The notes under the pieces were generated by a model. That model was not told where the DNA came from. It made no database searches and worked only from the letters and a program-made list of their open reading frames with translations. A program made the translations under genes and the position numbers. Shown here piece after piece: positions 33,073 through 57,312 of a DNA stretch of 64,000 nt. The DNA comes from Candidatus Eiseniibacteriota bacterium. Lineage in GTDB: Bacteria; Eisenbacteria; RBG-16-71-46; CAZAMP01. How positions within the stretch are numbered: position 1 is the first letter of the stretch; each line of letters starts with the position of its first letter. The stretch covers positions 2,084,148-2,148,147 of the forward strand of contig OZ245046.1 of NCBI GenBank assembly GCA_965224245.1, written 5' to 3'.

Positions 33073-34798
33073 GTGGTCTCTGGATGCCGAACTTCTTCAT
33101 CTTGTACCGCAGGTTTCGCTCGGAGATCCCCAGCTCGCCGGCGGCGCGCGTCTGGATCCAGTCGTGCTTCTCGAGGGCCTGAACCAGCGCCGTCTGTTCG
33201 AGATCCTCGAGGGTGGCCCCGTCCAGGGAGAGCGAGCGTCCATCCCCGTCTCCGGCGGCCCGTACCTCGGGAGAGAGCAGATCGACGTCGATCGTCTCGT
33301 CCTGACTCAGCACCAGGGCGCGGGAGATCACGTTCTCGAGCTCTCGTACGTTGCCCGGCCAGTCGTACTTGCAGAGCGCATCCAGCGCGGCCGGCGTCAG
33401 CCGGCGCCCGGGGCTCTCGAACTGCTGTCCCAGCGTGGACAGAAAGTGATCGGCCAGGAGCGGGATGTCCTCGGGACGGTCGCGGAGCGCGGGCAGCGTC
33501 AGCTCGATCACCTTGAGCCGGTAGTAGAGGTCCTCGCGGAATCGCTTCTCGGCGATCGCGTTCTCCAGGTCGATGTTGGTGGCGGCGATGATCCGGACGT
33601 CCACGTCGATGGACTTGCGTCCCCCGACGCGCTCGAACTGCTTCTCCTGGACGACGCGGAGCACCTTGGCCTGCACGACGAGGCTCATGTCGCCGATCTC
33701 GTCCAGGAACAGCGTGCCTCCGTTCGCCTGCTCGAACTTCCCGGCACGCCCCTCCACACCGGTGGCGGTGCCCTTCTCGATCCCGAAGAGCTCGGACTCG
33801 ATCAACGTCTCGGGCAACGCCGCGCAGTTCACCGACACGAAGGGACCCGTGCGCGTGCCCTGGTAGTGGATGACCTTCGCGATCAGCTCCTTGCCGGTGC
33901 CGTTCTCTCCCCGGATCAAGACGCTGACCGGTTTTCGTCCCACTCGTTCGGCCAGGGCGAACACGTCGCGCATGGGTCGCGATCGGCCGATGATCCCGTG
34001 GAACGAGAACCGATCGGAGACCTCGGCGCGCAGGCGCGCGTTCTCCTCGGCCAGGCGAGATTCCTCGTGGCGCACCCGGGCGAACGCGAGGGAGTTGCGG
34101 AACGCCACGCCGGCATGGTCGCAGAACATGCGCAGGAAGGTGCGATCGGACTCGTCGAAGAGACCCTTCACCGAGCGGCTCTCGAGATACACGACGCCGT
34201 AGACCTCGCCGTCCAGCAGGATGGGCGCGGCGAGGACCGAGAGGATCTGCAGCGCGACCACGGACTGCTTCGAGCGCAGCGCGTCGTCGTCGAGCGCGTT
34301 TCGCGTGTAGTACGGCTCGCGGGTCTCGCGCACCTTCGCGACCACGGTCTGGCTGATCTCCCGCTCGGCGCCCTCGATCGTCTGCTGGTCCACGTTGCGG
34401 GCGGCCCGGATCACGAGATCGTCGCCGGCGCTCAGGAAGAAGAACCCGCGCTCGGCGCGCGAGTGCTCGATCACGAGATCCATGACCACGTCGAACAGCT
34501 CGTCCTCTTCGAGGACGGCCGACAGCGTCCGTGTCACCTCGAGGATCGTCCGCGCCATCGTCTCCGCCGCGCCGTCGCCGCCGGGCGCCTCGGTCCGGAG
34601 CTCGGGGAGCAGCGTCTCGCGTCCCTCACGCAGCAGCTGGTCCAGCCGACTCAGGGCCAGCCGGACCGTCTCGATCTCCGACCCGGTGATCGGCGCGTTC
34701 GGGTCCACCCCAGAGGCGAACTCGGCGGCCCGTCGCACGAGGCGATGCGCCTGATCGATCAGCTGGTCGAGACGCGCGAGCGCATCGGTGGACGACAT
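33026..34798 (-). CDS. sigma-54-dependent transcriptional activator (GAF sensor, AAA+ domain, Fis-type HTH)
   Basis: Internal ATG at 34796-34798 gives a 590-aa protein; Walker A 'GENGTGKE', GAFTGA-type loop 'ESELFGIEKGTATG', Walker B 'GGTLFLDEIG', C-terminal HTH; the listed ORF has an Arg-rich extension. Confidence 0.85.
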   Translation of the reverse strand: MSSTDALARLDQLIDQAHRLVRRAAEFASGVDPNAPITGSEIETVRLALSRLDQLLREGRETLLPELRTEAPGGDGAAETMARTILEVTRTLSAVLEEDELFDVVMDLVIEHSRAERGFFFLSAGDDLVIRAARNVDQQTIEGAEREISQTVVAKVRETREPYYTRNALDDDALRSKQSVVALQILSVLAAPILLDGEVYGVVYLESRSVKGLFDESDRTFLRMFCDHAGVAFRNSLAFARVRHEESRLAEENARLRAEVSDRFSFHGIIGRSRPMRDVFALAERVGRKPVSVLIRGENGTGKELIAKVIHYQGTRTGPFVSVNCAALPETLIESELFGIEKGTATGVEGRAGKFEQANGGTLFLDEIGDMSLVVQAKVLRVVQEKQFERVGGRKSIDVDVRIIAATNIDLENAIAEKRFREDLYYRLKVIELTLPALRDRPEDIPLLADHFLSTLGQQFESPGRRLTPAALDALCKYDWPGNVRELENVISRALVLSQDETIDVDLLSPEVRAAGDGDGRSLSLDGATLEDLEQTALVQALEKHDWIQTRAAGELGISERNLRYKMKKFGIQRPRGGRVGPGRPASSGS

Positions 34799-38533: not shown

Positions 38534-39391
38534 TCACGTCGAGGCCGGCTTGCGGGCCACGACGGCGAACTCGGACGCCGCGGGATCGAACTCGCCTCCG
38601 GCCACGTCCCCGAGAACCTCCTCGACGACGAGACCGCTCCCCTCGACCTCACGCGTGAGCGCACCCGGATCGTAGTGCTGGAGCCAGTTGTAGACGACCC
38701 GTACCCGCGCCGGCTCCACGATCGTGTACCGGTCGAGCACCACTTTCTCCGCGTCGTACTTGAAGGTGCGGAGGAAACCGAAGTACGGCTCGGGCGACCA
38801 GAACCCCCCGAGGAGATCGCGGCCGACCTCGAGGCGCTCCTCCCGGCGCTCGAATGCGCCGAGCGACACGACGTCGAGGAGGAGCGCTCCGCCCGGCTCC
38901 AGGATCGCCTGGAACACGTCCAGCAGGCGGCGTCGCTGAACGGGACCGAGCGCGCAGAAGTCGCACATGATCATCGTGACGAGGTCGAACCGTTCACTCC
39001 ATCGGTGCTCGAGGTAGTCGGCGTGAACGTGATCGACCGAGACCCCCCGGCGCCGGGACAGCTCGCGCGCGTATCGGATCGAGCGCTCGGAGAAGTCGAT
39101 TCCGTGCACGCGAGCGCCGGCGGCCGCGAGCCGCGTGGTATAGAGCCCCGGCCCGCAGCCGAAGTCGGCCACGCGGGCGCCGCCCCCGAGTGCGAACCGA
39201 TCGGCGATCCAGGCCGCGGACCGATCGATGAACGCCCCCGATCGCGACGCCAGGTCGCTCGTTCCGTCCAGGTGACACTCCAGCATCCGGGCCGACGTGT
39301 GTGGATCGGTCCAGAGCTCGGCGACCGTGTGAACCTCGAACGGTGCCGGTCGCGCGTCGATGCTCTCGAGCGCGCCGTAGAGGTCGTTCAT
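38534..39391 (-). CDS. class I SAM-dependent methyltransferase
   Basis: Internal ATG at 39389-39391 (ATGA overlap with the permease stop); motif I 'VADFGCGPGLYT'. Confidence 0.8.
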   Translation of the reverse strand: MNDLYGALESIDARPAPFEVHTVAELWTDPHTSARMLECHLDGTSDLASRSGAFIDRSAAWIADRFALGGGARVADFGCGPGLYTTRLAAAGARVHGIDFSERSIRYARELSRRRGVSVDHVHADYLEHRWSERFDLVTMIMCDFCALGPVQRRRLLDVFQAILEPGGALLLDVVSLGAFERREERLEVGRDLLGGFWSPEPYFGFLRTFKYDAEKVVLDRYTIVEPARVRVVYNWLQHYDPGALTREVEGSGLVVEEVLGDVAGGEFDPAASEFAVVARKPAST

Positions 39392-40302
39392 GCGCGGCTC
39401 TCCTCGTCGTACGGAACGCCCACGTTCCCCGGCGGTGTCGATCGTCCGATGAAGCCGCACAGGACGACGAGCGTCAACACGTACGGAATCATCTGCACGA
39501 CGTGTGAGGGCACGTCCACGCCGAGCGAGGTCTGGAGCCTGATCTGGAGCGCCTCGGCGAACCCGAACACCAGGCTGGCCAGGACGGCCCCCCCGGGGCG
39601 CCACTTGCCCACGATCATCGCCGCCAGCGCGATGTATCCGCGTCCAGCGGTCATTCCGGACGTGAACGACGCCTGCTCGCTGGCCAGATACGCCCCCGCG
39701 AGCCCGGCCAGGAGGCCCGAGGCGAGAACGCCCGCCGTCCTCACCCGGCGCACGCGGATGCCGAGGCTCGCCGCCGCCACGGCGTGCTCGCCCACCGCGC
39801 GCAGCCGGAGCCCGAAGCGGGTCCGGTAGAGCACGACGTGCGAGGCCACCGCGATCAGGAGCGTGGCCAGGACGAGCGGATGCGAGAGGGTCGGGCCGAC
39901 CACCGGAATCGCCGACAGCCCCGACACCGCCCCCGGATCGAACCCGACGATGCGCGGCGAGTTCGAACTCGAGCCGAACACGAGCTTCAAGGTGAAGTCG
40001 GTGGCTCCGAGCATCGTCAGGTTGATCGCGATGCCCGAGACGATCTGCTCGCCGCGAAAGCGGATGGTCACGATCGCGTGCACGCCCGCCACGGCGAGAC
40101 CGACCAGGAGTGCCGCGAGCACGCCGAGCTCCGGAGCCTGACCGAAGTACGCACCGATCGCGAAGCCGAACGCGCCGGCGAGCATGATGCCCTCGAGCGC
40201 GATGTTCACCACCCCCCCGCGCTCGGAGAACATCCCCCCCAGCGACGCCAGCACGTACGGGATCGAGATGCGGAGTCCCTGGGCCACGAAGGCGATCTCC
40301 AT
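39388..40302 (-). CDS. ABC transporter permease (BMP/nucleoside-type system)
   Basis: 304-aa polytopic membrane protein, second permease of the operon. Confidence 0.8.
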   Translation of the reverse strand: MEIAFVAQGLRISIPYVLASLGGMFSERGGVVNIALEGIMLAGAFGFAIGAYFGQAPELGVLAALLVGLAVAGVHAIVTIRFRGEQIVSGIAINLTMLGATDFTLKLVFGSSSNSPRIVGFDPGAVSGLSAIPVVGPTLSHPLVLATLLIAVASHVVLYRTRFGLRLRAVGEHAVAAASLGIRVRRVRTAGVLASGLLAGLAGAYLASEQASFTSGMTAGRGYIALAAMIVGKWRPGGAVLASLVFGFAEALQIRLQTSLGVDVPSHVVQMIPYVLTLVVLCGFIGRSTPPGNVGVPYDEESRA

Positions 40303-40303
40303 G

Positions 40304-41368
40304 TCAGGACCTCCCGGCCAGTGCGGCCTTCGCGCGCTCGACCCGGAGCCGCTCGGCGACCGAGCGGCTCACCAGGATCATCAGGATCACGACACCCTGG
40401 AGGATCGAGACGATCTCCTTCGGCACGAGGTCGCTGACGGTCAGCCCGCCGTGCTGCATCGCCCCGAACAGGAGCGCGGCCAGCACGACGCCGATGGGCC
40501 GGCTCTGCCCCAGCATCGCCACCGCGATGCCCATGAAGCCGACGCCGTCGGAGAAGTTCGCTCCGAAGTAGTGCCGGTAGCCGAGCACCTCGTGCACCCC
40601 GACCAGCCCCGCCATCGCACCGCCCAGCACGAAGGCCGTCCGCTGGCGGGCCCCGACGGCGATGCCCGCCGCGCCGGCCGCGCGCGGGTTCAGCCCCACC
40701 GCGCGGAGCTCGAATCCGAGCGGGGTCCTCCACAGGAATACGTGGACGAGCGCGGCGACGACCAGCGCGACCGCGAGGGCGACGCTCACCGATGCGCCCC
40801 GGAAGGCCGGGATGATCGTCGAGAGCCGGGGCAGCCAGATCGACGACGGCACGTGCTCGGTATGGATGGTCTCGGGCACCGCCATGTGGTACGTCACGAC
40901 GTATCCGGTCAGCGCGATCGCGACGAAGTTCAGCATGATCGTGCTGATCACCTCGTGCGCGCCGAAGCGGCTCTTCAAGGCGCCGGCGATCCCGCCCCAG
41001 AGCGCGCCCCCGAGCGCCGCGGCGATCATCACGCCCGCGCACAGCATCGGTCCGGGCACGCCCGGCAACGCCAGCGCCAGCGCCGCGGCGGCGAACGCGC
41101 CGACGTAGAGCTGACCCTCGGCGCCGATGTTGAACAGCCCCGCGCGAAACGGAAGCGCCACCGCGAGCCCCGTGAAGATCAGCGGCGTGGCGTTGAACAG
41201 CGACTGCCCCAGGCCGTAGGGGGACAGGAGCGTCTCGGAGACGAGCCGCGCCAGCACCACCATCGGAGACGCACCGGCCACGGCGACCAGGATCGCGCCG
41301 ATGCCGAGCGTCAACGCAGCGGCGGCGACGGCGGTGACGAGATCGATCCGTCTCGCGTCGGTGCTCAT
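40304..41368 (-). CDS. ABC transporter permease (BMP/nucleoside-type system)
   Basis: Polytopic membrane protein; start at the ATG that overlaps the ATPase stop (ATGA). Confidence 0.8.
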   Translation of the reverse strand: MSTDARRIDLVTAVAAAALTLGIGAILVAVAGASPMVVLARLVSETLLSPYGLGQSLFNATPLIFTGLAVALPFRAGLFNIGAEGQLYVGAFAAAALALALPGVPGPMLCAGVMIAAALGGALWGGIAGALKSRFGAHEVISTIMLNFVAIALTGYVVTYHMAVPETIHTEHVPSSIWLPRLSTIIPAFRGASVSVALAVALVVAALVHVFLWRTPLGFELRAVGLNPRAAGAAGIAVGARQRTAFVLGGAMAGLVGVHEVLGYRHYFGANFSDGVGFMGIAVAMLGQSRPIGVVLAALLFGAMQHGGLTVSDLVPKEIVSILQGVVILMILVSRSVAERLRVERAKAALAGRS

Positions 41369-42912
41369 CGGACGCTCGCTCGACCGCCGAGCATCCACTC
41401 ACCCAGCACCTCGGGCGTGGCCTCCTCACCCGGAAGCTCGGCCACGATCGCACCGCGCACCATCACCAGGATGCGATGCGACAGCGTCGTCAGCTCGTCC
41501 AGCTCGGCGCTCACGAGCAGCACCCCCAGCCCGTCCGAGGCCGCCTCGGCCAGCATGCGGTGGAGCGACGCCACCGCGCCCACGTCCACGCCGCGCGTGG
41601 GCCCGGCCGCCACCAGGAGGACCGGATCTCCGGCCAGCGCGCGGGCCAGGACCACCTTCTGCTGATTGCCGCCCGAGAGTTCCTCCACCGGTGCCCCGGC
41701 GTCGGGCGGTCGCACGTCGTAGCGCCCGACGAGCGCCTCCGCCTCGCGGGTGACGGCCGCGCGATCGCGGAGGAGCGCGTTCGCGAACGGGCGGCGGCGA
41801 TGTCGGCCCAGGACGAGATTGTCCGCGACCGAGAACGTCGAGACGAGCCCCTCGTCCAGCCGGTCCTCGGGGACCAGTCCGATGCCGGCGTCGGCGAAGG
41901 CACCGCGGTCCCGCCCGCGGAGCTCGGTCGCGCCCAGCGTGATCCGCCCCGAGTCCGGCGCCCGCAGTCCGGACACGACCTCCACGAGCTCGGTCTGTCC
42001 GTTTCCGGCCACACCGGCCACGCCCACCACCTCGCCCGCGCGCACGCCGAGGGACACGTCGTCGAGAAGCGTGTGGCCGTGGGAGTCCGTCAGCGAGACC
42101 CGATCCAGCGACAGGAGCATCTCGCGCGAGCGCGGCGCCGTCCGCCGCGGCGGCACCGGCAGCGAGCGTCCGACCATCGCGTGCGCGAGAGACTCGATGG
42201 TCACGTCCGACACGGCGGACGTGGAGATGGTGCGACCGCGCCGCATGACGGTGGCGCGATCGGCCACCCGCACCACCTCGGACAGGCGGTGCGTGATCAG
42301 GATGATCGTGCGTCCCGACGCTGACAGCCCGGTCAGCGCACGGAACAGTCCGTCGGTCTCCTGGGGGGTCAGCACCGCGGTGGGCTCGTCGAGCACCAGC
42401 ACGCGGGCGCCCCGGTGCAGGAGCTTCAGGATCTCGACCTGCTGCTTTGCACCCACGCCGAGCGTGTCCACGCGAGCGCACGGATCGACCGGCATGCCGT
42501 GCTCGGCGCCCAGCTCCGCCACGCGCGTGTCCGCCCGGCCGCGGAGGTGGAAGCCGGCGCGTACCGGCTCGTGACCGAGGACGACGTTGTCGGCCACCGT
42601 GAGGGGTGCGACCAGCGTGAAGTGCTGGTGGACCATGCCGATGCCGGCCGCGATGGCGTCGCGCGGAGACCGGAGCTCGATCTCGCGTCCGTCGACGCGG
42701 ATCTGGCCCGCGTCGGGACGCGTCTCGCCGTAGAGGATGCGCATCAGCGTGGATTTGCCGGCGCCGTTCTCGCCCACGATCGCGTGGATCTCGCCCCGGT
42801 TCGCCGAGAACGACACGCCGTCGTTGGCGATCACACGCGCGAACCGCTTGACGATGCCGGTCAGCTCGACCGCGGGCGTCGTGCCGTTGTCCGCCCTCGC
42901 CCCGGGGGTCAT
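41365..42912 (-). CDS. ABC transporter ATP-binding protein with tandem nucleotide-binding domains
   Basis: Internal ATG at 42910-42912; first NBD 'GENGAGKST', 'VLVLDEPTA'; second NBD 'GVAGNGQTEL', 'LSGGNQQKV'; the listed ORF has an Arg-rich 5' extension. Confidence 0.85.
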   Translation of the reverse strand: MTPGARADNGTTPAVELTGIVKRFARVIANDGVSFSANRGEIHAIVGENGAGKSTLMRILYGETRPDAGQIRVDGREIELRSPRDAIAAGIGMVHQHFTLVAPLTVADNVVLGHEPVRAGFHLRGRADTRVAELGAEHGMPVDPCARVDTLGVGAKQQVEILKLLHRGARVLVLDEPTAVLTPQETDGLFRALTGLSASGRTIILITHRLSEVVRVADRATVMRRGRTISTSAVSDVTIESLAHAMVGRSLPVPPRRTAPRSREMLLSLDRVSLTDSHGHTLLDDVSLGVRAGEVVGVAGVAGNGQTELVEVVSGLRAPDSGRITLGATELRGRDRGAFADAGIGLVPEDRLDEGLVSTFSVADNLVLGRHRRRPFANALLRDRAAVTREAEALVGRYDVRPPDAGAPVEELSGGNQQKVVLARALAGDPVLLVAAGPTRGVDVGAVASLHRMLAEAASDGLGVLLVSAELDELTTLSHRILVMVRGAIVAELPGEEATPEVLGEWMLGGRASVR

Positions 42913-43985
42913 CGCGTGCGCGGCACCGTCACGCGCCCGGAGACGATGTCGTCCCGGTAGGCCTCGACCTGCGCGTGCACGTCGTCGTCGATCAGCTCCC
43001 GGTTGTGATCGTCGTAGACGTAGTCGACGCCCCGCTCGGCCAGTCCCAGCTCGCGCACGCCTCCCGAGAAGCGACCGGCCAGCTCGGCCTTGATCGTCTC
43101 GAAGACCGCGACGTCCACGCGCTTGACCATGCTGGACAGGATGCGCCCTGGCGCCTCCTCGTATTGATCGGAATCGACGCCGATCGCGAAGCGCCGCGTC
43201 TGGCGCGCCGCCTCGAACACGCCGAGACCGGTGGCGCCGGCCGCGTGGAAGATCACGTCCGCCCCGGACTCGTACTGCGCGAGGGCCAGCTCCTTGCCCT
43301 TCGACGGGTTCGCGAACGCCTCGCCGGTGACCCCGGCGTAGCTGACGAAGACGGTCACGTCCTCGCGCGCGTGCTCGGCGCCGGCCTCGTACCCCGCCTG
43401 GAAGCGATGGATCAGCGGGATGTCCATGCCGCCCACGAACCCGATCTTGCCCGTCTTCGACGTCAGCGCGGCCAGCGCGCCGACCAGGAACGAGCCCTCT
43501 TCCTCCCGGAACCGGAGCGCCGTCAGGTTCGGCGGCAGCGTCTCGCCGTCCTTCAGCGAGTAGTCCACGCAGGCGAAGTGCCGATCGGGGAACTCCTCGG
43601 CGATGTGCCGGATGTCGTCGGAGAACAGAAACCCGACCCCGAACACGAGCTTCAGGTCGGACGCCGCCATCTTCCTGAGCGACGGCTCGCGATCCGCGCC
43701 CGATGGTGGCTCCAGGATCTCGAAGTCGATCCCGAGCGAGTCGCGGGCCCGCAGGAGTCCCCGGTATGCGGCGTCGTTGAACGACTTGTCCCCGAGACCG
43801 CCCACGTCGAACACGAGCCCGACCACGGGACGGGACTGGCTGGACGACTGGTCCGCGCGGCATCCCCAGAGCACGACCGCCCCCAGCGAGAGGCCCACGA
43901 GCGCGGCCGACACCCCGCGGGCGAGGCGGCGCCGGGGCGGGTCCGGAACGCGCGTGCCACAGCGGTCGGCCATCATCCCTCCCTC
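42909..43985 (-). CDS. BMP-family ABC transporter substrate-binding lipoprotein (nucleoside-binding type)
   Basis: Start at 43983-43985 (GAGGGAGGG upstream); lipobox 'LWGC'; '[17 protein letters not shown]', 'FGVGFLF'. Confidence 0.8.
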
Positions 43986-44545
43986 GGCGGCTGGAAGCAG
44001 TGGCGGCATCGCGCCTCGTAGACGTCGGCGGCCCCGACCACGATGCGCTCGCCCGACGGTGTCTTGCGCTGGCTCCGATTGCCCGGCCCCCCGCACACCA
44101 CGCAGATGGCCAGCGTCTTGGTGATGTACTCGGCGATGGCCAGGAGCTCGGGGATCGGCTCGAACGGGCGACCGCGGTAGTCGGTGTCGAGCCCGGCGAC
44201 GATCACCCTCCGGCCGCCCGCCGCGAGATCCTGACACACACCGACCACGCGCGGACCGAAGAACTGCACCTCGTCGATGCCCACGACCTGGGCGTCGCCG
44301 GCCAGCTCGGCGATCTCGGCCGACGTGGACACGGCCTGCGACGGCAGGCTGATCTGACTGTGCGACACGATGTGATCGGCGCGGTAGCGGTCGTCGAGCT
44401 TGGGCTTGAAGATCGCCACCCGCTGCTTGGCGATCTCGGCGCGGCGCAGACGGCGAATGAGCTCCTCGGACTTTCCGCTGAACATGCTGCCGCAGATGAC
44501 TTCGACCCAGCCCGGCCGTCCGGCCGGATGCGGCGGTGGATTCAT
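43973..44545 (-). CDS. tdk: thymidine kinase
   Basis: '[17 protein letters not shown]', '[10 protein letters not shown]', C-terminal zinc ribbon 'CVVCGGPG...RCRHCF'. Confidence 0.85.
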
Positions 44546-44598
44546 GCGAGGACTCCCGACGACCGCCGGCGCCGTGGATCGCGCCGGGTCGTCCGCGT

Positions 44599-45237
44599 TC
44601 AGTTCATGCCCGCGAGCTGCGAGCGGATCTTGGTCTTCAACAGATCGACGGCCACGTGATTGTAGCCGCCCTCGGGAATGATGACGTCGGCGTAGCGCTT
44701 GGTGGGCTCGATGAACTGCTGGTGCATCGGCCGGACGTACGCCTCGTACTGCGCGATGATCGACTCGACCGAGCGCCCGCGCTCGAACACGTCCCGCTTG
44801 AGGCGGCGGATGAACCGCACGTCGGGATCGGTGTCGATGTACACCTTGATCCGCATCTTCTCGCGCAGTCGCCGGTCGTAGAACACGAGAATACCCTCCA
44901 GGATCACGATCCGCGAGCCGCCGGCGCGCGTGGTCTCCCGGGTGCGAACGTGGTTGACGTAGTCGTACACGGGGACGTCCACGTGCGTGCCGGACAGCAG
45001 CGTGTCGACGTGAGCCCGCAGGAGGTCGGTGTCGAACGCGTCTGGATGGTCGAAGTTGAACGCGGCGCGCTCGGGCTCGGGCATGTGGCCGAGGTCACGG
45101 TAGTAGTTGTCCTGCCGGAGGATGACGACCTTGTCGGGCCCCAGGTCGTCGTAGATGGACCGGGCCACCGACGTCTTGCCGGAGCCGCTGCCACCGGCGA
45201 TGCCGATCAGGATCCCCTCCTGCTCGCGCAGGATCAT
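44599..45237 (-). CDS. udk: uridine kinase
   Basis: Internal ATG at 45235-45237 gives 212 aa '[15 protein letters not shown]...LRQDNYYRD...YDYVNHVR'. Confidence 0.9.
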
Positions 45238-45539
45238 GCCCCACCTCCCCCGGAGTCCCGGCCGGACGACGGCGAGCGCGATACGTCGTCCACCACCCCG
45301 ACGATCATCGTGCGTACGGGACCACGGCCGGTCTCCATGACCACCGCGGCGCCGCCGCCTTCGTCGTTGACGAGGACCCGATCGCCCACACCCGCGTCCA
45401 CGCTGTCCAGCGCGATCACGTCGTCGGGCTCGAGCTCGCCGCGATCGTTCTCGTACGCGATCACGAGCAGCTTCCATCCCACGAGCGCGGGATGCTTGAC
45501 GGTGGACACCACCTCGCCGGTCACCCGCGCGACACGCAC
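45234..45539 (-). CDS. EutN/CcmL/PduN-family bacterial microcompartment vertex protein homolog
   Basis: GTG at 45537-45539 (GGAGGA 8 nt upstream, 1 nt after the dNK stop) gives 101 aa 'VRVARVTGEVVSTVKHPALVGWKLLVI...ALDSVDAGVGDRVLV...PVRTMIVGVVDDV', collinear with E. coli EutN; the stop overlaps the udk ATG. Confidence 0.7.
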   Translation of the reverse strand: MRVARVTGEVVSTVKHPALVGWKLLVIAYENDRGELEPDDVIALDSVDAGVGDRVLVNDEGGGAAVVMETGRGPVRTMIVGVVDDVSRSPSSGRDSGGGGA

Positions 45540-45540
45540 G

Positions 45541-46194
45541 TCAGTCCTCCGGTCCCGCGTCCAGCGCACCCAGGCGACGCGCGCGGGCCCGTACGTCTCG
45601 GTAGATCCGCTCGAGGCCGTCGTCGAGAAAGTCGGGCGCCTCGGTGTCGACCTCGAGCACCTCGAAGCGATCGCGCGCCTCGGCCATCCAGGCCGCATAC
45701 GCGTTCTCCAGCCGCTGCAGGTACTCGCGCGAGATCCCCTGCTCGCACTCGCGGCCCCGGCTCTGGATCCGCTCCACGTGGGTGTCGATCGACGCCTTGA
45801 GGTACAGGATGAGATCTGGCGGGCGAAGCCCGTCGACCATCTCCCAGAACAGCGATCGGTAGGTGTCGTAGTCGATGCGCGACATGTCCCCTTGCCGGAG
45901 CAATGTCGTCGCGAAGACCTCGGCGTCCTCGTAGATCGTGCGATCCTGGATGAACGAGCGTTTCTCCATCACGAAGCGCTTCTGGGCCTTGTAACGCTCG
46001 GAGAGAAAGTACATCTGCAGGTGGAACGACCACCGCGCCATGTCGGCGTAGAAGTCCTCGAGATACGGGTTCTCGATGACGGGCTCGTAGTACACCGGCC
46101 AGCCCAGTCGCTGGCTGAGCGTGCTCGAGACGTGCGTCTTGCCCACGCCGATGTTGCCGGCGACCGCCAGGAAGAAGCCGCGCCCGGCGCTCAC
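45541..46194 (-). CDS. deoxynucleoside kinase (dAK/dGK/dCK family)
   Basis: P-loop 'VAGNIGVGKTH', 'YYEPVIENPYLEDFY', 'ERS'-type motif region; GTGA overlap with the hpt stop. Confidence 0.85.
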   Translation of the reverse strand: MSAGRGFFLAVAGNIGVGKTHVSSTLSQRLGWPVYYEPVIENPYLEDFYADMARWSFHLQMYFLSERYKAQKRFVMEKRSFIQDRTIYEDAEVFATTLLRQGDMSRIDYDTYRSLFWEMVDGLRPPDLILYLKASIDTHVERIQSRGRECEQGISREYLQRLENAYAAWMAEARDRFEVLEVDTEAPDFLDDGLERIYRDVRARARRLGALDAGPED

Positions 46195-46718
46195 ACGCCC
46201 GCCTCGGCCGGATCGAGAACGCCGATGTAGGGCAGCTCGCGGTGCCGCTCGGCGTAGTCCATGCCGTACCCGACCACGAACTTGTCGGGGATCGCGAAGC
46301 CCACGTAGTCCACCTTCACGTCCACCTCGCGCCGATCCACCTTGTCCAGGAGCGCGCAGGTCCTGAAGGACCGGGGGCGCCGGATCTGGAGGCTATCGCG
46401 CATGTAGGCCAGCGAGCGACCCGAGTCCACGATGTCCTCGACGAGCAAGAGATCGCGGCCGGAGACGTCGGTGTCCAGGTCCTTCAGCAGGCGCACGACG
46501 CCGCTGGAGGACGTGCCGTCCCCGTACGAGGACACGGACATGAAGTCGACCTCGTGCGGGATCGGCAGCCTGCGCATGAGGTCCGACATGAACATGAACG
46601 AGCCCTTGAGGACGCCGACCAGGATCAGGTCGGCGTCGGGACCGTAATCGCGCGTGATCTCCCCGGCGAGCTCGTCGACCCGCCGGTCGATCGCCTCGCG
46701 CGTGATGAGTATCTCCAC
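46191..46718 (-). CDS. hpt: hypoxanthine phosphoribosyltransferase
   Basis: GTG at 46716-46718 (GGGGGGAG upstream) gives 175 aa; PRPP motif 'LLLVEDIVDSGRS', 'YVGFAIPDKFVVGYGMDYAERHR'. Confidence 0.85.
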   Translation of the reverse strand: MEILITREAIDRRVDELAGEITRDYGPDADLILVGVLKGSFMFMSDLMRRLPIPHEVDFMSVSSYGDGTSSSGVVRLLKDLDTDVSGRDLLLVEDIVDSGRSLAYMRDSLQIRRPRSFRTCALLDKVDRREVDVKVDYVGFAIPDKFVVGYGMDYAERHRELPYIGVLDPAEAGV

Positions 46719-46851
46719 GGCTGAGCTCCCCCCTGCGCGCGCTTGCGGAATTGAGTCGGCGAGGGTAGCGTCCCGCTCGAGAGGGGTCAATCGGTCTCCC
46801 CGGCACACGCCGCAACGCGGTACGGCTCCGAACGCTCGCCCCGAGGTCGCC

Positions 46852-47949
46852 ATGGCAGACGACGCCACCACCCATCCTCCGATCACCCGCGAGCTGATCC
46901 TCGCGCTTCCCAAGACCGACCTCCACGTACACCTGGACGGATCCCTCCGGCCGGAGACCGTGCTGGAGCTGGTCGGGCAGTACGGGATCGAGCACCCGGC
47001 GAGGACTCCCGCCGAGATGCAGCGCGCGCTCAGCGTGGACGGGTCCCGATCCCTCGAGGAGTACCTCGAGGTCTTCGAGTTCACGCTGCGCCTGCTCCAG
47101 GAGCGCTCGTCCATCGAGCGAGTGGCCTACGAGCTGGCCGTCGACGCGGCCGCCGAGAACGTCCGGCACCTGGAGGTGCGATTCGCCCCGATTCTCCATC
47201 AGAGTCAGGGCCTCTCGCTGGACGAGATCCTGGACGCGGCCCTCGCCGGGCTCTCGCGGGCGAACTCCGAGACCGGCATCCGGACCGGCGTCATCGTGTG
47301 CGGCATCCGGCACATCCGCCCCGAGCGCTCGCTCGATCTGGCCGACCTGGCCGTGCGCTACAAGCACCGGGGCGTGGTCGCGTTCGATCTGGCCGGCGCC
47401 GAGCGGGACAACCCCGCCAAGCATCACCTGGAGGCGTTCTACCGGGTCCTCAATGCGAACCTCAGCTGCACCGTGCACGCCGGTGAGGCGTTCGGCCCGG
47501 CCTCCATCCACCAGGCCATTCACTACTGCGGCGCGCACCGGATCGGGCACGGCACACGGCTTCGGGAGGACCCCGAGCTCCTGGCCTACGTCAACGATCA
47601 CCGGATCCCGATCGAGATGTGCCTCACGTCCAACCTGCACACCGGCGCGATCTCGCGCCTCGAGGACCATCCGTTCCGCGACTACTTCGACCTGGGGCTC
47701 CGGGTCACGCTGAACACCGACAACCGGCTCATCTCGAACACGACGGTCACCGACGAGCTGGTCCTGGCCTGCGAGATGTTCCGGCTCACGCCCGGCGAGC
47801 TACGCTACGTGATCCTGAACGGATTCAAGAGCGCCTTCCTGCCCTTCGCCGAGAAGGTCGAGATGATGGCCCGCGTCGTGGAGGAGCTGGATTCGGTGCT
47901 CCAGGCGCATCATCCCGACAGCTCCCACCACGGCCGGTCGATCCTCTGA
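46852..47949 (+). CDS. add: adenosine deaminase
   Basis: Internal ATG at 46852; 'LPKTDLHVHLDGSLRPET', 'HAGE', 'HRIGHG', 'TLNTDN'; the listed ORF has a spurious 5' extension. Confidence 0.9.
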   Translation: MADDATTHPPITRELILALPKTDLHVHLDGSLRPETVLELVGQYGIEHPARTPAEMQRALSVDGSRSLEEYLEVFEFTLRLLQERSSIERVAYELAVDAAAENVRHLEVRFAPILHQSQGLSLDEILDAALAGLSRANSETGIRTGVIVCGIRHIRPERSLDLADLAVRYKHRGVVAFDLAGAERDNPAKHHLEAFYRVLNANLSCTVHAGEAFGPASIHQAIHYCGAHRIGHGTRLREDPELLAYVNDHRIPIEMCLTSNLHTGAISRLEDHPFRDYFDLGLRVTLNTDNRLISNTTVTDELVLACEMFRLTPGELRYVILNGFKSAFLPFAEKVEMMARVVEELDSVLQAHHPDSSHHGRSIL

Positions 47950-51289: not shown

Positions 51290-51530
51290 GCGATGCACTC
51301 CTTTTGCGTTGCTGGCACTGGACCGCCGGAGCCTCACCCGGCCGGGTCCCGCGCGCAGGCGGGCACCCTCCCGGCCGGCCGACACCCGAACGGTCGGTCG
51401 CTGGATCTCCCATGGTCGCGTCATTTGCGTCAAGTCTATCACCGGCCTCGGTTTGGTACCACATGCGCGGCCCCCATCGGGCCCCATCACGAAGTTCTCA
51501 TCCACCGGCGCGCTTGCTAGACTGCCGCGC

Positions 51531-51974
51531 ATGAGCGCTCACCCCAAGCGACCGGACGGCCCTGCGCGCCCCGATCCGGGCACACGGGCCGCCCTCGAGG
51601 GCCTCGTCTCCCGGTGCGGGCCGTCGCCCGGTGACCAGTGCCCCGCTCTCGCGGCCTGCGGCGACACCGCGGGCCCGATCGGGGTCGCGGTCACGGTCCG
51701 GAGCCAGACGCCCGGCCTCGGCGCCTGCGCGACCCGGCTCGTCCTGGCCCGCGCCGTGGCCGAGGGACGGGCCGCCACACACCTGGTCGTGGACGGCGAC
51801 TGGCAACGGCTGTGCGGGCTCTGCCTGCAGACCCTGCTCGAGCTGGCGCCCGAAGCCCCGGTCTTTCCGCTCGGCCCCAACCCCTCGGCCCCGGTGCCCT
51901 GGCGATCGTTGATCCCGGATCCGTTCGTCTCGTTCATCCCCGAGCCGGCCCCCGGAGGCCCCCGTGTCGACTGA
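51531..51974 (+). CDS. hypothetical Cys-containing protein
   Basis: ATG at 51531; high GC3; 147 aa with 'CGPSPGDQCPALAACGD' and 'CGLC'; its stop overlaps the rpiB start. Confidence 0.5.
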   Translation: MSAHPKRPDGPARPDPGTRAALEGLVSRCGPSPGDQCPALAACGDTAGPIGVAVTVRSQTPGLGACATRLVLARAVAEGRAATHLVVDGDWQRLCGLCLQTLLELAPEAPVFPLGPNPSAPVPWRSLIPDPFVSFIPEPAPGGPRVD

Positions 51975-52431
51975 CCGGCCGAGGCGGGTCGCCATCGGAG
52001 CCGACCATGCCGCCTATCGTTACAAGGTCTCGCTCATGGAGTGGATGAGAGAGGAGCTGGCGGGCGTGTCGGTCCTGGACTGCGGCACCCACTCCGAGGC
52101 CCCGGTCGACTACCCCGACATCGCGGCCGCGGTCGCGAACGCGGTCCGGACCGGCGAGGTGGACCGCGGCATCGTCATCGATCACGCCGGGATCGGATCC
52201 ACGATGGCCGCGAACAAGATCCGCGGGGTCCGGTGCGCGCTGTGCCACGACGAGGCGACCGTCCTCAACAGCCGCCGCCACAACGACGCGAACGTCCTGG
52301 CGCTGGGAAGCGCGGTCGTGAACGTCGGCTACGCGCGCACGCTCGTCCGCGTGTGGCTCGCCGCGCCGTTCGAGGGCGGACGGCACGCGCGGCGCGTGGA
52401 CAAGATCATGGCGCTCGAGGGCTCGTCGTGA
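51964..52431 (+). CDS. rpiB: ribose-5-phosphate isomerase B (RpiB/LacAB family)
   Basis: 'RVAIGADHAAY...VIDHAGIGSTMAANKIRGVRCAL...RRHNDANVLALG...EGGRHARRV' aligns with E. coli RpiB; GTG start. Confidence 0.85.
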   Translation: MSTDRPRRVAIGADHAAYRYKVSLMEWMREELAGVSVLDCGTHSEAPVDYPDIAAAVANAVRTGEVDRGIVIDHAGIGSTMAANKIRGVRCALCHDEATVLNSRRHNDANVLALGSAVVNVGYARTLVRVWLAAPFEGGRHARRVDKIMALEGSS

Positions 52432-53234
52432 TCGTCCCCGGCGGCAACGCCGTCCCGCCCGCGCTCCGCCGGGCCATCGAGGAGCGCGGCCCGAGCGCGA
52501 GTCCGGCGGCCGGGGGCCGTGCCCCGATCGCCTCGATCGCGTCGGTCGTCGACCACACGCTGCTCCGGGCCGACGCCTCGCAGACCCAGATCGAGACGCT
52601 CTGTGCCGAGGCGATCGAGTACGGCTTCGCGTCGGTGTGCGTGAATGCGATCTGGGTGCCGGTGGCCGCGCGCGCGCTCACCGGGTCGGACGTGAGCGTG
52701 TGCACGGTGGTCGGCTTTCCGCTGGGTGCCATGCGCTCGCCGATCAAGGCGCTCGAGGCCGAGACCGCCCGGGCACGCGGCGCGCGGGAGATCGACATGG
52801 TGGTGAACGTGGGCGAGCTGATCGGCGGCGGCGCCGACCGGGTCCGCGAGGACATCGCAACCGTCCGCCGCGTGCTGTCACCCGACGCCACGCTGAAAGT
52901 GATCCTGGAGACGGCGTTCCTCTCCGACGACCAGAAGCGACTGGGCGCCCGCGTGGCCGTCGAGGCCGGCGCGGACTTCGTGAAGACGTCCACCGGCTTC
53001 GGCCCCGGCGGAGCGACGGTGCCCGACGTGCGGCTGCTCGCCGAGACCGTGGGCGAGCGGTGCCGGGTCAAGGCCTCGGGCGGCATCCGGACGCTCGCCG
53101 CGGCGCGGGCCCTCGTCGAGGCGGGCGCGGCGCGCATCGGGGCCAGCGCCGGCGTGGCGATGGCGCGTGAGGAGCGCGGGCTCTCGACGACGACGACGAT
53201 CCCATCGGCCCCACCGCCTCACGGCGGCTACTGA
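52428..53234 (+). CDS. deoC: deoxyribose-phosphate aldolase
   Basis: GTG at 52428 overlapping the rpiB stop; 'VDHTLL', 'VVGFPLG', 'KVILET', Schiff-base lysine region 'AGADFVKTSTGF', 'KASGGIRT'. Confidence 0.85.
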   Translation: MIVPGGNAVPPALRRAIEERGPSASPAAGGRAPIASIASVVDHTLLRADASQTQIETLCAEAIEYGFASVCVNAIWVPVAARALTGSDVSVCTVVGFPLGAMRSPIKALEAETARARGAREIDMVVNVGELIGGGADRVREDIATVRRVLSPDATLKVILETAFLSDDQKRLGARVAVEAGADFVKTSTGFGPGGATVPDVRLLAETVGERCRVKASGGIRTLAAARALVEAGAARIGASAGVAMAREERGLSTTTTIPSAPPPHGGY

Positions 53235-53365
53235 GCCGGATCCGGCCTCGCTCCCGGCGGTCGCCGCGCCCGGGCCCACCCGGAAAAGGGTGGCGAACGC
53301 CCGAAGCGGAACACTAGACTCGCCCGCACGTGAACACCCGTCGACGACCCCAACGCTCCCGTGGG

Positions 53366-56269
53366 ATGCGCATGACGTTGCCGCTTCATCAGCGCCGCCG
53401 AGCCCTCCCGGGCCTCGTCGCGATCGTCCTGGTCACGCTGGCGACGCTCGTCGCGTCGACGACGACCGCCGGCCTCGCGCGCGCGGCGGACGCCCCCGCC
53501 GGTCAGACCGGCATCGTCCGGGGCACGGTCGTGGACGGCGACTCCCAGGAGCCCCTCCCCTTCGCCAGCATCATCGTCAAGGGGACCACGCGCGGCGCTC
53601 CGTCGCGCGACGACGGCTCGTTCGGCATTCGCGGCGTCGCCACCGGCAGCCAGGCGCTGCTGGTGACCTACGTCGGCTACTCGCCGATGGAGTTCCCCGT
53701 CCTCATCCATGCCGGCGAGGTGACCACGGTGCGCATCGAGCTGTCGCGGTCGGTCGGCTCGGTCGAGGAGGTCAAGGTCTTCGGAGACCGTCCCCTCGTG
53801 GACGTGCGCGAGACGTCCTCGTTGAAGACGCTCTCCACGCAGGACATCGACGACCTGACGATCGAGCCCACGCTGGAGTCGCTGCTGGGTCAGCAGGCCG
53901 GCGTGTCGGTCCAGGACGGTGAGATCCACATCCGGGGCGGACGATCCGACGAGACCGCGCTGATCGTGGACGGCGTGTCGCTGAAGGACGCCGTCTCGGG
54001 CGCGGCGGTGGCGGGCGCGCTCAGCGCCGGATCGGCGGCCGAGGTGTCGGTGGCCAAGGGCGGCTGGAGCTCCAAGCACGGTGACGCGATCAGCGGCGTC
54101 GTCGACGTGCGGGTGCGCGAGGGCACCGAGCAGTGGAAGGGCTCGGTCAGCTACACCACCGATGCGATGGTGGGCACGCAGTCGCTGCACTACGCCAATC
54201 TCCAGCTGAGCGGACCCAACGTGCTGTTGAAGCCGTTCTCGGCGCTGTTCGGCATCGACCGCTCGCAGCCGGCCACGTTCCACCTCGACCTGTCGACCGA
54301 GCTGTCGGACACGTACCTGCCCTCGGTCCGGGATCTCGGCCCGGGACGCCGGCGACTGAAGTCGTCGTACGTCAACACGCTCCTCGGGAAAGACCTCGAC
54401 TTCGGAGACTTCTTCACCCCGCGCGGCAGCAACGACTGGCGCTTGACCGCGAAGACGGGCTGGACGGTTCATCCCGCGCACAAGCTCACCGCCACGTACA
54501 TCAAGTCGCTCGGCTTCTCGAGCCAGTTCCAGGCGGTGGACATCGGGGAGGTGAACCAGAACATCACGCAGTACCCGTGGGCCTGGAGCCACCGCCTCGA
54601 CGACCACTACACGATCTCGACCGACTTCTACGCGCTGTCGCTGCAGTGGAAGCACTCGCTGGGCGACACGAAGTACCATCAGCTGCGCACCAAGTATCGC
54701 TTCTCGGCCACGCACCAGGACGTCCGCGGCCTGAACTGGGCCGACTACGAGGAGCCGTCGGACGAGATTCTCGACGACGATCACCCGTACTTCGTCGACT
54801 CCGGCACCGCGCCCCAGTACCACGACCGCTACTCCGAGCTGGCCGGCATCGACTGGGACTTCGTGTCCAACGGCGAGCACCACGACGTCGAGTTCGGGGT
54901 CAGTGCCGGCTACGAGGACGTGCAGTACTTCAGCCTCGACGCCTACAGCGTGACCCAGGACGCGCCCCTCGGTGACGAGTACGACCTCTTCCGCGTCTTC
55001 CCGGCCAAGGGCAGCTTCTACGTCGACGACAAGATCGAGTATCCCGGCATCGTCATGCGCGTGGGTGTGCGCGGCGACGTCTTCTTCCCGGGCGAACGCG
55101 TGGAGCGCCTGTTCGACGCGGCCGATCGACCGGGCTTCAACGAGGCCACGCGGGCGGAGTGGTACGACGCCACGAACGAGATCTTCGGGCGGCGCTACAA
55201 GATCCGCTTCAGTCCGAGCCTGGGGATCAGCCATCCGATCACCGATCGCAGCAACTTCTTCTTCAACTACGGTCGGTTCACGAAGTGGCCCACGTACTTC
55301 TACATGTACGCGGCCACGGGCGGCATCTCGTCGCCGGAGTTCGCCAACATCGGCAACCCCAACCTCGACCCACAGATCTCCGCGCAGTACGAGTTCGGTG
55401 TGGGGCACCGGCTCTCGGATCGGCTCTCGCTTCGCGCACAGGTCTTCTTCAAGGACATCTACGACTACCCGACGTCGGTGCCCGTGGAGCTCGGCACCCG
55501 CGAGACCCGGCGCCAGACGTTCTTCGTCTACCGCAACGCCGACTACGGGCGATCGCGTGGAATCGAGATCGAGGTGCAGCGCCGGCGCGAGCGCTACGCC
55601 TGGTACTCGGCCAGCTACTCGTTCTCGGTGGCCTCCGGCAAGTCGTCCGATCCTAATGCGCTCAACGTCGTGCAGTCGCTCGGTGGCGACGCGCGAGAGA
55701 CCGATCTCGAGGAGCAGTTCCTGTGGTGGCATCGCCCACACAAGCTGACGCTGTCGGGCGGCTATCAGGTCGACGCCGATCAGCGCGCCCCGAAGCTCTT
55801 CGGGTGGAGGCTTCCCAGGGAGTGGAAGCTGAGCTTCTTCTGGCTTCTCCAGTCCGGCGAGGCCTACACGCCGACCACCCCGCTGGGTACGCGCATCGAC
55901 AAGAGCTACTCGCGCAACGGCCCCATCGACAGCGTGTTCGATCTGAACGTGGTCAAGACGTTCCGGGTGGGCGATCGGCCCTTCCAGCTCACGTTCTCGG
56001 CCCGCAACCTTTTCAACCACCGGACGGTGCTCGAGATCGACTCGGCCACCGGAGACTCGCCGCGATCGGGGCTGGGCTCGAACTGGCGACCCGCCGAGAG
56101 CCCGCAGGAGCTCGTCGCCGTGGGCTACACGGTGCGTGAGACCGACACGCTGTACGAGGAGCTGGCCGGCTTGAACGACGCCATCGTGCGTTCGATGACC
56201 GGGCTGTTGAACCCCGCGTACATCGCCGCGCCGCGCAGCCTCCGGGTGGGCATCGGCTATGAGTGGTAG
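53366..56269 (+). CDS. TonB-dependent receptor, SusC-like (carboxypeptidase-regulatory-like domain, plug, beta-barrel)
   Basis: Signal peptide; 'GIVRGTVVDGDSQEPLPFASIIVKG...YVGYSP' CarboxypepD_reg-like; plug 'VEEVKVFGDRPLVD...IHIRGGRSDETALIVDGVSL'; barrel ending in an aromatic residue '...RVGIGYEW'; start could be 53330 (GTG), 53366 or 53372. Confidence 0.8.
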   Translation: MRMTLPLHQRRRALPGLVAIVLVTLATLVASTTTAGLARAADAPAGQTGIVRGTVVDGDSQEPLPFASIIVKGTTRGAPSRDDGSFGIRGVATGSQALLVTYVGYSPMEFPVLIHAGEVTTVRIELSRSVGSVEEVKVFGDRPLVDVRETSSLKTLSTQDIDDLTIEPTLESLLGQQAGVSVQDGEIHIRGGRSDETALIVDGVSLKDAVSGAAVAGALSAGSAAEVSVAKGGWSSKHGDAISGVVDVRVREGTEQWKGSVSYTTDAMVGTQSLHYANLQLSGPNVLLKPFSALFGIDRSQPATFHLDLSTELSDTYLPSVRDLGPGRRRLKSSYVNTLLGKDLDFGDFFTPRGSNDWRLTAKTGWTVHPAHKLTATYIKSLGFSSQFQAVDIGEVNQNITQYPWAWSHRLDDHYTISTDFYALSLQWKHSLGDTKYHQLRTKYRFSATHQDVRGLNWADYEEPSDEILDDDHPYFVDSGTAPQYHDRYSELAGIDWDFVSNGEHHDVEFGVSAGYEDVQYFSLDAYSVTQDAPLGDEYDLFRVFPAKGSFYVDDKIEYPGIVMRVGVRGDVFFPGERVERLFDAADRPGFNEATRAEWYDATNEIFGRRYKIRFSPSLGISHPITDRSNFFFNYGRFTKWPTYFYMYAATGGISSPEFANIGNPNLDPQISAQYEFGVGHRLSDRLSLRAQVFFKDIYDYPTSVPVELGTRETRRQTFFVYRNADYGRSRGIEIEVQRRRERYAWYSASYSFSVASGKSSDPNALNVVQSLGGDARETDLEEQFLWWHRPHKLTLSGGYQVDADQRAPKLFGWRLPREWKLSFFWLLQSGEAYTPTTPLGTRIDKSYSRNGPIDSVFDLNVVKTFRVGDRPFQLTFSARNLFNHRTVLEIDSATGDSPRSGLGSNWRPAESPQELVAVGYTVRETDTLYEELAGLNDAIVRSMTGLLNPAYIAAPRSLRVGIGYEW

Positions 56270-57284: not shown

Positions 57285-57312
57285 ACCGGCGCACCCCGGC
57301 GCCCCTGGGCGC

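Follow-up and report, generated by a model that had tools for sequence, protein, structure and literature searches.

Microcompartments of the sugar-phosphate-utilising (SPU) type are among the most widespread bacterial microcompartments (BMC). Their isomerase-like protein, a member of the ribose-5-phosphate isomerase family (RPI, RpiB), has been reported to carry an Asp in place of the catalytic Cys66 in all SPU systems. The SPU RPI has a typical encapsulation peptide (EP) and negligible ribose-5-phosphate isomerase activity, and the RPI and the deoxyribose-phosphate aldolase (DERA, DeoC) of a Chloroflexi SPU system form a complex of about 1:1 in biochemical experiments (Dwyer, Sutter & Kerfeld 2024, PMC11585597). 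Two further groups are close to the locus described here. In the fragmented (FRAG) group the genes are described as distributed over as many as six sites in the genome. FRAG8, which is found mostly in Gemmatimonadetes and includes a metagenome-assembled genome of 71% GC, has a triplet of the vertex protein BMC-P together with the shell hexamer BMC-H, and nearly all of its loci contain pfam01791, while two contain pfam02502; in FRAG3 (Calditrichaeota) DeoC adjoins BMC-P, and searches of the FRAG genomes with hidden Markov models (HMMs) of EPs gave no matches (Sutter 2021, Suppl. Data 2). In the HO genomes (Haliangium-like) the pfam01791 enzyme is encoded at a remote site and sometimes has an EP-like extension (Sutter 2021). 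Here we describe an overlapping rpiB-deoC pair and a single BMC-P gene in a stretch of 64,000 nucleotides from Candidatus Eiseniibacteriota bacterium (contig OZ245046.1, positions 2,084,148 to 2,148,147), which is called the window in the following. The pair is of the microcompartment (SPU) type by descent. With a probability of roughly 60%, it encodes an SPU-derived DERA-RPI complex that has lost its EPs, is probably untargeted and cytoplasmic, and serves the scavenging of nucleosides and DNA.

The coordinates of the overlapping pair given in a preliminary description of this DNA proved to be exact (Table 1), and both family assignments are confirmed by Pfam and NCBIfam models. The rpiB product matches Pfam LacAB_rpiB (PF02502) with E=9.8e-51 and scores above the threshold of NCBIfam TIGR01120 (148.5 bits, cutoff 138.65), and DeoC, which also has a Pfam DeoC match, scores above that of TIGR00126 (247.9 bits, cutoff 117.3). 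The DeoC core, comprising residues 36-247, aligns with solved DERAs in the PDB (E=2e-66), and the residues D123, K186, and K215, which do not vary within the family alignment, have the same spacing as D102, K167, and K201 of the E. coli enzyme (residues according to Dwyer 2024, PMC11585597). The window DeoC is a class I deoxyribose-5-phosphate aldolase and is intact. Its core is preceded by a 35-residue N-terminal remnant, which contains a PGGNAVPP motif and a nine-residue helix, and followed by a C-terminal tail with the final Tyr. At the junction of the two genes the DNA reads TCG TCG TGA, with the GTG of deoC at 52428-52430 and the TGA of rpiB at 52429-52431, and a GAGG is located at 52417-52420, 6 nt upstream of the overlap. 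Products of 155, 268, and 101 residues, identical to RpiB, DeoC, and the vertex protein, are all on record from one contig of 6,451,234 bp, and an independent gene caller thus agrees with the open reading frames (ORFs) of the window. Of the six lineages in which the rpiB/deoC junction was read, five have an ATGA or GTGA there (the window and the loci L081, L084, L088, and L099). In the sixth, L098, an in-frame ATG overlaps the rpiB stop likewise, with the recorded deoC call beginning 36 nt downstream. Because the overlap is kept across the lineages it is not due to chance. A scan of 51200-53450 for promoters and terminators found none.

In principle, the pair could belong to general housekeeping and be unrelated to microcompartments, with RpiB acting in the pentose-phosphate pathway, DeoC in deoxynucleoside catabolism, the two genes being neighbours by coincidence or because of a general function in pentose metabolism, and the vertex gene being an unrelated relic. 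Such an explanation would agree with the fact that both proteins pass NCBIfam equivalog thresholds, and with the surrounding 64 kb, the remainder of which is core chromosome (FtsK, MetK, RpoN, L21/L27, RNase G, PBP2, and MreBC). In addition, a neighbour-joining tree places the DeoC cores of the lineage in a clade of their own and not inside the DeoCs of the SPU loci. However, the catalytic residue of RpiB speaks against a housekeeping function. The window RpiB has an Asp at the position of the catalytic Cys66 ('IDHAGIGS' compared to 'ICGTGLGI' in the alignment with 3HE8), and a check of the mafft column likewise gave Asp for the window and Cys for C. thermocellum. The same Asp is found in the RPIs of all six sequenced relatives and of four SPU-shell loci, while the non-BMC RpiB of L044 keeps the Cys. 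RPIs of the SPU type showed negligible activity and bind DERA at about 1:1, and, despite the name RpiB in the preliminary description, the window protein is very likely not a working ribose-5-phosphate isomerase.

The adjacency of the two genes also speaks against a housekeeping pair. As background sample we used 80 diverse deoC loci from among the matches listed in a scan of a genome collection with the window DeoC, with at most 62% identity. In only four of these (L015, L021, L050, and L074) rpiB is directly upstream of deoC. All four contain BMC-P, three have a BMC-H match, and an aldehyde dehydrogenase (AldDH) is shown in one; Pfam scans confirmed the BMC-P in L015 and L074 and the BMC-H and AldDH in L074. 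Among the 80 loci listed, the adjacency is thus otherwise found only in shell loci. The relatives of the window RpiB point in the same direction. In a search against 1.84 billion cluster representatives, 23 of the nearest 30 were of the Asp type and 22 of the 30 had an N-terminal extension of at least 25 residues, and most of the extensions show an EP-like helix with the pattern [LIV]xx[LIV][LIV]xx[LIV][LIV]. N-terminal extensions are present in 63 of 82 Asp-type compared to 18 of 53 Cys-type representatives. The other 19 Asp-type RPIs among these representatives (P0351-P0500) have none, and EP-less RPIs of the SPU type may be fairly common outside the lineage of the window, with some of them possibly being truncated gene calls.

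Orthologs in the same synteny carry EPs on both proteins (see below), and in each of the seven lineages the pair is on one contig with the vertex gene, both having been read in six of them. Taken together, a housekeeping pair is very improbable, and this explanation can be regarded as already largely refuted. The preliminary description had left the choice between a shell-less relative of the SPU system and an independent deoxyribose catabolic module. The evidence favours the SPU relative and argues strongly against a housekeeping pair without any such relationship. A pairing that is ubiquitous and shows no co-occurrence with the vertex gene had been named as what would speak against a connection to microcompartments; instead, the pair and the vertex gene are found on one contig in six other lineages. 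Because of the tree, the SPU descent is based on the Asp of the RPI, the EPs of the sister lineages, and the adjacency of the genes, and not on the DeoC core.

The closest relatives of the window DeoC have 57-65% identity and come from loci of uncultured bacteria in which the order of the genes is the same (L081-083, L084, L088, L098, L099, and L102; L087 covers the kinase side only). The pair together with a preceding cytidine-deaminase-like (cdd-like) gene is on one contig with BMC-P in the window and six lineages, and both parts were read in all of these seven except L102. In the other lineages the distance between the pair and BMC-P is within about 10 kb where it is readable. In L081, L084, L088, and L102, amphipathic N-terminal helices are present on RpiB, which has 181-196 residues in these lineages, and on DeoC (e.g. 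LEKLVEGVAREIL and ALVRVVTREVLRRL; the L102 DeoC is provisionally taken as P0068). As a further resemblance, the DeoC motif 'ITREVL' is also found in the SPU-locus DeoCs of L021 and L074. In the window, L098, and L099 neither protein has an EP. The EP status of RpiB and DeoC therefore agrees in seven out of seven lineages, four of which have EPs and three of which do not.

In the window RpiB only seven residues are ahead of the core. The frame is interrupted upstream by a stop codon at 51910-51912, and no start codon occurs between this stop and the GTG of rpiB at 51964, so that an N-terminal extension is not possible. The window DeoC begins with MIVPGGNAVPPALRRAIEERG. With EP mini-HMMs, which were built from unrelated sequences only, the window RpiB obtained 0.2 bits compared to 7-10.7 bits for the RpiBs of L081, L084, and L088, and the window DeoC obtained -0.7 bits. 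The EP-bearing set as a whole obtained 4.5-10.7 bits. The hydrophobic moment is 0.6-0.73 in the EP-bearing set, and the window DeoC has no qualifying segment. In the AlphaFold model of the window DeoC (mean pLDDT, the predicted local distance difference test score, of 89.6) the N-terminus contains only a helix of residues 11-19 with a pLDDT of about 72. The model of the L084 DeoC has a 25-residue helix at residues 2-26 with a pLDDT of 92-94. The EPs that the preliminary description had suggested looking for on the two proteins are thus absent from the window according to the EP-HMMs, the structure prediction, and the closed upstream frame, and present in four sister lineages. Frames +1 and +2 of 52421-52500 at the junction were read by eye for a hidden EP, and contain no EP-like peptide.

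All EP-less DeoCs have the motif RPGGNA[LV]P at their N-terminus (residues 2-11 in the window, at 52431-52460, and P0006, P0010, P0032, and P0052). A related motif (KGGNMMP, PRGNAVP) is found in L088 and P0007, there downstream of the EP helix and about 20 residues before the core. From this placement it appears that the EP helix and the first linker have been deleted in the EP-less DeoCs. The EP-less genomes do not group together by pairwise identity, and there are tentative hints that EPs have been lost more than once.

Since EPs are found on both proteins in the sister lineages and on neither protein here, the complex of the window most likely has no targeting to a shell and works in the cytoplasm. 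In such a cytoplasmic complex, translational coupling would provide equal amounts of DERA and the Asp-type RPI, and by analogy to the Chloroflexi SPU pair the two would assemble at about 1:1. The RPI-like subunit would be a non-isomerising or differently specific partner, and DERA would split deoxyribose-5-phosphate that presumably derives from scavenged deoxynucleosides. Having no EPs the complex would stay in the cytosol, as a de-compartmentalised descendant of an SPU/FRAG-type system.

Several observations weigh against this explanation in addition to the position of the DeoC cores in the tree. The gene of BMC-P, at a distance of 6.4 kb, is intact, and also in lineages without EPs its conservation equals that of the neighbouring genes (56-73% identity). 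The continued existence of a shell would make this easier to understand. As the FRAG genomes contain shell genes and nevertheless gave no EP-HMM matches, a missing EP is no proof against encapsulation. The 35-residue extension of the window DeoC retains the conserved RPGGNA[LV]P motif and the short helix. Finally, neither a phosphopentomutase nor an acetaldehyde-consuming enzyme, which would complete a cytosolic pathway, is found among the scanned ORFs of the window.

The preliminary description had noted that there are no shell genes between the pair and the vertex gene, and a six-frame search extends this to the entire window. A profile search did not reveal any BMC-H (best E about 1) and no genuine BMC-T, the sole BMC-T match (E=0.0016) being in a frame antisense to PBP2. 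A phmmer search of the six frames with two BMC AldDHs did not find an AldDH (best E=0.07), and the Aldedh Pfam match is absent from every scanned window ORF. A class II aldolase was not found in a six-frame search of the 64 kb; the PduL phosphotransacylase was not searched for. There is exactly one BMC-P in the window and thus no BMC-P triplet. BMC-H was also not found in the 12-21 kb that were retrieved of the loci of the syntenic relatives.

It could also be imagined that the pair continues to be packaged in a functional FRAG8-like microcompartment, whose BMC-H, two further BMC-P, BMC-T, and AldDH are encoded elsewhere in the 6.45-Mb genome. Packaging would then have to be independent of EPs, via the N-terminal motif or the short helix of DERA, by piggy-backing on a tagged protein, or through BMC-P itself. 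FRAG8 sets a precedent for this, as it combines dispersed shell genes with pfam01791 and pfam02502 and with missing EP-HMM matches, and so does FRAG3 with its DeoC beside BMC-P. The constraint on BMC-P in the EP-less lineages, the conservation of the RPGGNA[LV]P motif, and the BMC-P relatives described below would also fit. However, both EP helices have disappeared in step in three lineages and have been kept in four, which is the pattern to be expected once targeting is no longer needed. The 64-kb window does not contain a shell hexamer or an AldDH. Of less weight are the findings that there is no second protein of the 6,451,234-bp contig among all 109 matches of the window BMC-P, and none from this contig among the best 120 of 1426 matches to the a-type BMC-P of L085. 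A dispersed shell is the main alternative but on balance not the probable explanation. Another reading would be that we see the loss of a microcompartment in progress: in four lineages the pair would be tagged cargo of a dispersed shell, and in the other three, possibly more than once, both helices would have been deleted in step, leaving the complex in the cytosol, with the Asp-type RPI still translationally coupled to DERA and BMC-P still part of the nucleoside-kinase operon. We consider this scenario rather unlikely.

The identity of the vertex protein, which the preliminary description had placed about 6 kb from the pair, is confirmed by the BMC-P profile (E=3.3e-34) and by CcmL and BMC-P structures in the PDB that match over the full length, and its gene is 6.4 kb from rpiB. 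The NCBIfam models CcmL and EutN match the protein below their cutoffs. The gene is part of a nucleoside-salvage operon, where its stop codon overlaps the start of Udk, and in eight divergent lineages its place is between dNK and Udk. Co-transcription of nucleoside kinases and the vertex protein of a shell is puzzling. The degree of conservation relative to the neighbouring genes is the same in lineages with and without EPs (56-73% identity). A metagenome scan with BMC-P gave only nine loci, and in seven of these the contig is no longer than about 3 kb.

The nearest BMC-P homologs outside this synteny group (57-59% identity) are the third BMC-P of the HO-like main loci L085 and L100. Both loci are complete (L085:6951-11105 and L100:6790-10270) with the order BMC-H, BMC-P, AldDH, BMC-T, BMC-P, and BMC-P; L085 also contains a class II aldolase and the AldDH of L100 has an EP-like N-terminus. 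Their hosts are high-GC bacteria with T9SS-type proteins (T9SS, type IX secretion system). Another relative is found in the operon L101:8630-12674, which consists of a PGM/PMM-family mutase, BMC-P, DeoC, and a pyrimidine nucleoside phosphorylase. Here, the BMC-P, which is 53% identical to that of the window, directly precedes an EP-tagged DeoC of 315 residues (EP SLVDRIVREVLGA). BMC-H was not matched in the 20 kb retrieved of L101 (tblastn with PduA). This operon is a compact FRAG3-like module that ties the vertex protein to the breakdown of deoxynucleosides. From L085, L100, and L101 it follows that the clade of the window-type BMC-P travels with nucleoside catabolism.

Table 1. Coordinates of the rpiB-deoC pair, the vertex gene, and surrounding features in the window.
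Feature	Position	Strand	Basis and remarks
Purine nucleoside phosphorylase-family gene, 19 kb upstream	32191..33096	-	Pfam PNP_UDP_1, E=1.5e-40
Probable nucleoside ABC importer (Bmp/PnrA-like binding protein, ATPase, two permeases)	39388..43950	-	Pfam Bmp, ABC_tran x2, BPD_transp_2 x2
Nucleoside-salvage operon	43973..46760	-	NCBIfam equivalogs (HPRT, Udk, Tdk), Pfam dNK
Tdk (operon)	43973-44545	-	
Udk (operon)	44599-45237	-	
BMC-P (EutN/CcmL-family vertex protein), 101 residues, between dNK and Udk (operon)	45234..45539	-	
dNK (operon)	45541-46194	-	
HPRT (operon)	~46191-46760	-	
Adenosine deaminase	46654..47949	+	Pfam A_deaminase, E=1.2e-95
Secreted protein with two lamin-tail domains, beside the pair	49511-51289	-	
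Cytidine-deaminase-like ORF, 147 residues from ATG, first of a three-gene unit	51531..51974	+	Pfam match of an ortholog
SPU-type RPI (RpiB family), 155 residues	51964..52431	+	Pfam, NCBIfam; catalytic Cys replaced by Asp; without encapsulation peptide
GTGA overlap (GTG start of deoC and TGA stop of rpiB)	52428..52431	+	Read from the DNA
Deoxyribose-phosphate aldolase (DERA/DeoC), 268 residues, GTG start	52428..53234	+	Pfam DeoC, TIGR00126
TonB-dependent receptor, directly downstream of deoC	53330..56269	+	Pfam CarbopepD_reg_2, Plug, TonB_dep_Rec

The pair is the second part of a unit with the order cdd-like, rpiB, and deoC, in which the end of the cdd-like ORF overlaps the start of rpiB by 11 nt. 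An ORF of 135-150 residues overlapping the rpiB start is also present in L081, L084, L088, L098, L099, and L102, and its sequence was read in the window and in all of these except L102. The ortholog of L084 passes Pfam dCMP_cyt_deam_1 with 25.6 bits; the ORF of the window has no Pfam match. None of the six lineages that were read has kept the catalytic Glu of the CAE motif, which has become CAT in the window, L088, and L098, CAL in L081 and L084, and CAP in L099. Both Cys residues of the PCGxC motif are retained. The protein may be a pseudo-enzyme or a protein with deaminase fold and another role. We also considered it as carrier of an EP on which the pair could piggy-back, but rejected this because its N-terminal helix was judged, by comparison with the B. 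subtilis enzyme, to be the usual first helix of the cytidine-deaminase fold.

Downstream of deoC, a TonB-dependent receptor, a PorV/FadL-like protein, and an NHL-repeat protein are encoded at 53330-59274 on the plus strand. The scan with a terminator consensus did not find a terminator-like site in the gap between deoC and the receptor gene. The receptor follows deoC also in L081, L084, L088, L098, and L099, and in the same lineages the lamin-tail, TonB, PorV/FadL-like, and NHL-repeat genes flank the pair. These flanking genes suggest an envelope uptake system for extracellular DNA or nucleosides. A MobA-like nucleotidyltransferase and a small membrane protein are encoded between the lamin-tail gene and adenosine deaminase. 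The neighbours listed in the preliminary description, a purine nucleoside phosphorylase (PNP), adenosine deaminase, and nucleoside kinases (dNK, Udk, and Tdk), are all present. The order of the ABC importer genes is kept in L087 and L088. On opposite strands, the long ORFs of HPRT (46191-47126, minus) and adenosine deaminase (46648-47949, plus) have several hundred bases in common. Their domain matches suggest true starts near 46750 and 46900, respectively, with a short divergent promoter region in between. The GC content of the window is 69%.

It has been proposed that the RPI of the SPU systems possibly survives only as an EP-bearing packaging factor (Dwyer 2024, PMC11585597). The Asp-type RPI of the window persists without an EP and is tightly coupled to DERA, which argues for a role that is independent of packaging. 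If a microcompartment is indeed being lost in these lineages, the function of the SPU RPI would be independent of encapsulation, either as an obligate DERA subunit or as an unknown catalyst, and the window-type BMC-P would do more than cap a shell. Because the Chloroflexi proteins were rendered insoluble by their EP, EP-free DERA-RPI pairs would provide naturally soluble material for biochemistry. Sister lineages with and without EPs in identical synteny constitute a comparative system for the release of cargo and for the retention of several BMC-P paralogs. In addition, the FRAG loci become linked to a concrete physiology, namely the uptake and salvage of nucleosides and probably also of extracellular DNA.

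Compared to the catalogued systems, the layout with BMC-P near deoC, which the preliminary description had wanted to see set against known microcompartment loci, resembles FRAG8 and FRAG3. As in these groups, the window has BMC-P near pfam01791 and pfam02502, no local shell hexamer, and no detectable EP, and BMC-P near the pair without a local hexamer is also found in the six other lineages. The 69% GC and the T9SS/TonB-type, CarboxypepD_reg, PorV-like, and GWxTD proteins would be compatible with a host of the Fibrobacteres-Chlorobi-Bacteroidetes (FCB)/Gemmatimonadetes group. A member of the FRAG class also needs BMC-H and another two BMC-P at other sites of its genome, and the window was compared on its 64 kb alone. 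Because the window fits the FRAG picture, the arrangement itself is not new. However, the FRAG catalogue gives no account of the nucleoside-kinase operon around BMC-P or of the EP-bearing sister lineages, and we found no published description of either this operon around BMC-P or the presence and absence of EPs in identical synteny. The likeness to the HO type consists in the BMC-P, which is closest to the third BMC-P of the HO-like loci L085 and L100. The window DeoC differs by having no EP, and the likeness concerns BMC-P and DeoC only, with no HO main locus demonstrated here.

The classical deo operon of enterobacteria and Bacillus (deoCABD) shares with the window the chemistry of DeoC and the link to the uptake and catabolism of nucleosides. 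However, neither a thymidine phosphorylase nor a phosphopentomutase is adjacent, and the window deoC is not located beside deoA, deoB, or deoD. In addition, the window DeoC has an N-terminal remnant, and its partner is an Asp-type RPI, which is absent from deo operons. Compared to the SPU loci, the window has one BMC-P instead of a triplet, EPs on neither protein, and no AldDH, BMC-H, BMC-T, or class II aldolase in its 64 kb, and the pair is joined to a cdd-like gene and a TonB-receptor cluster instead of shell genes. Nevertheless, the DERA-RPI pair itself is that of the SPU systems (Axen 2014; Sutter 2021; Dwyer 2024). The DERA belongs to the same pfam01791 with the D/K/K active site, and the RPI belongs to the same pfam02502 with the hallmark replacement of Cys66 by Asp and, in the window, a retained His99. 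The genes have the same adjacency and co-orientation, with rpiB preceding deoC, and the same context of nucleic-acid breakdown, and their orthologs in the sister lineages carry the same type of helix.

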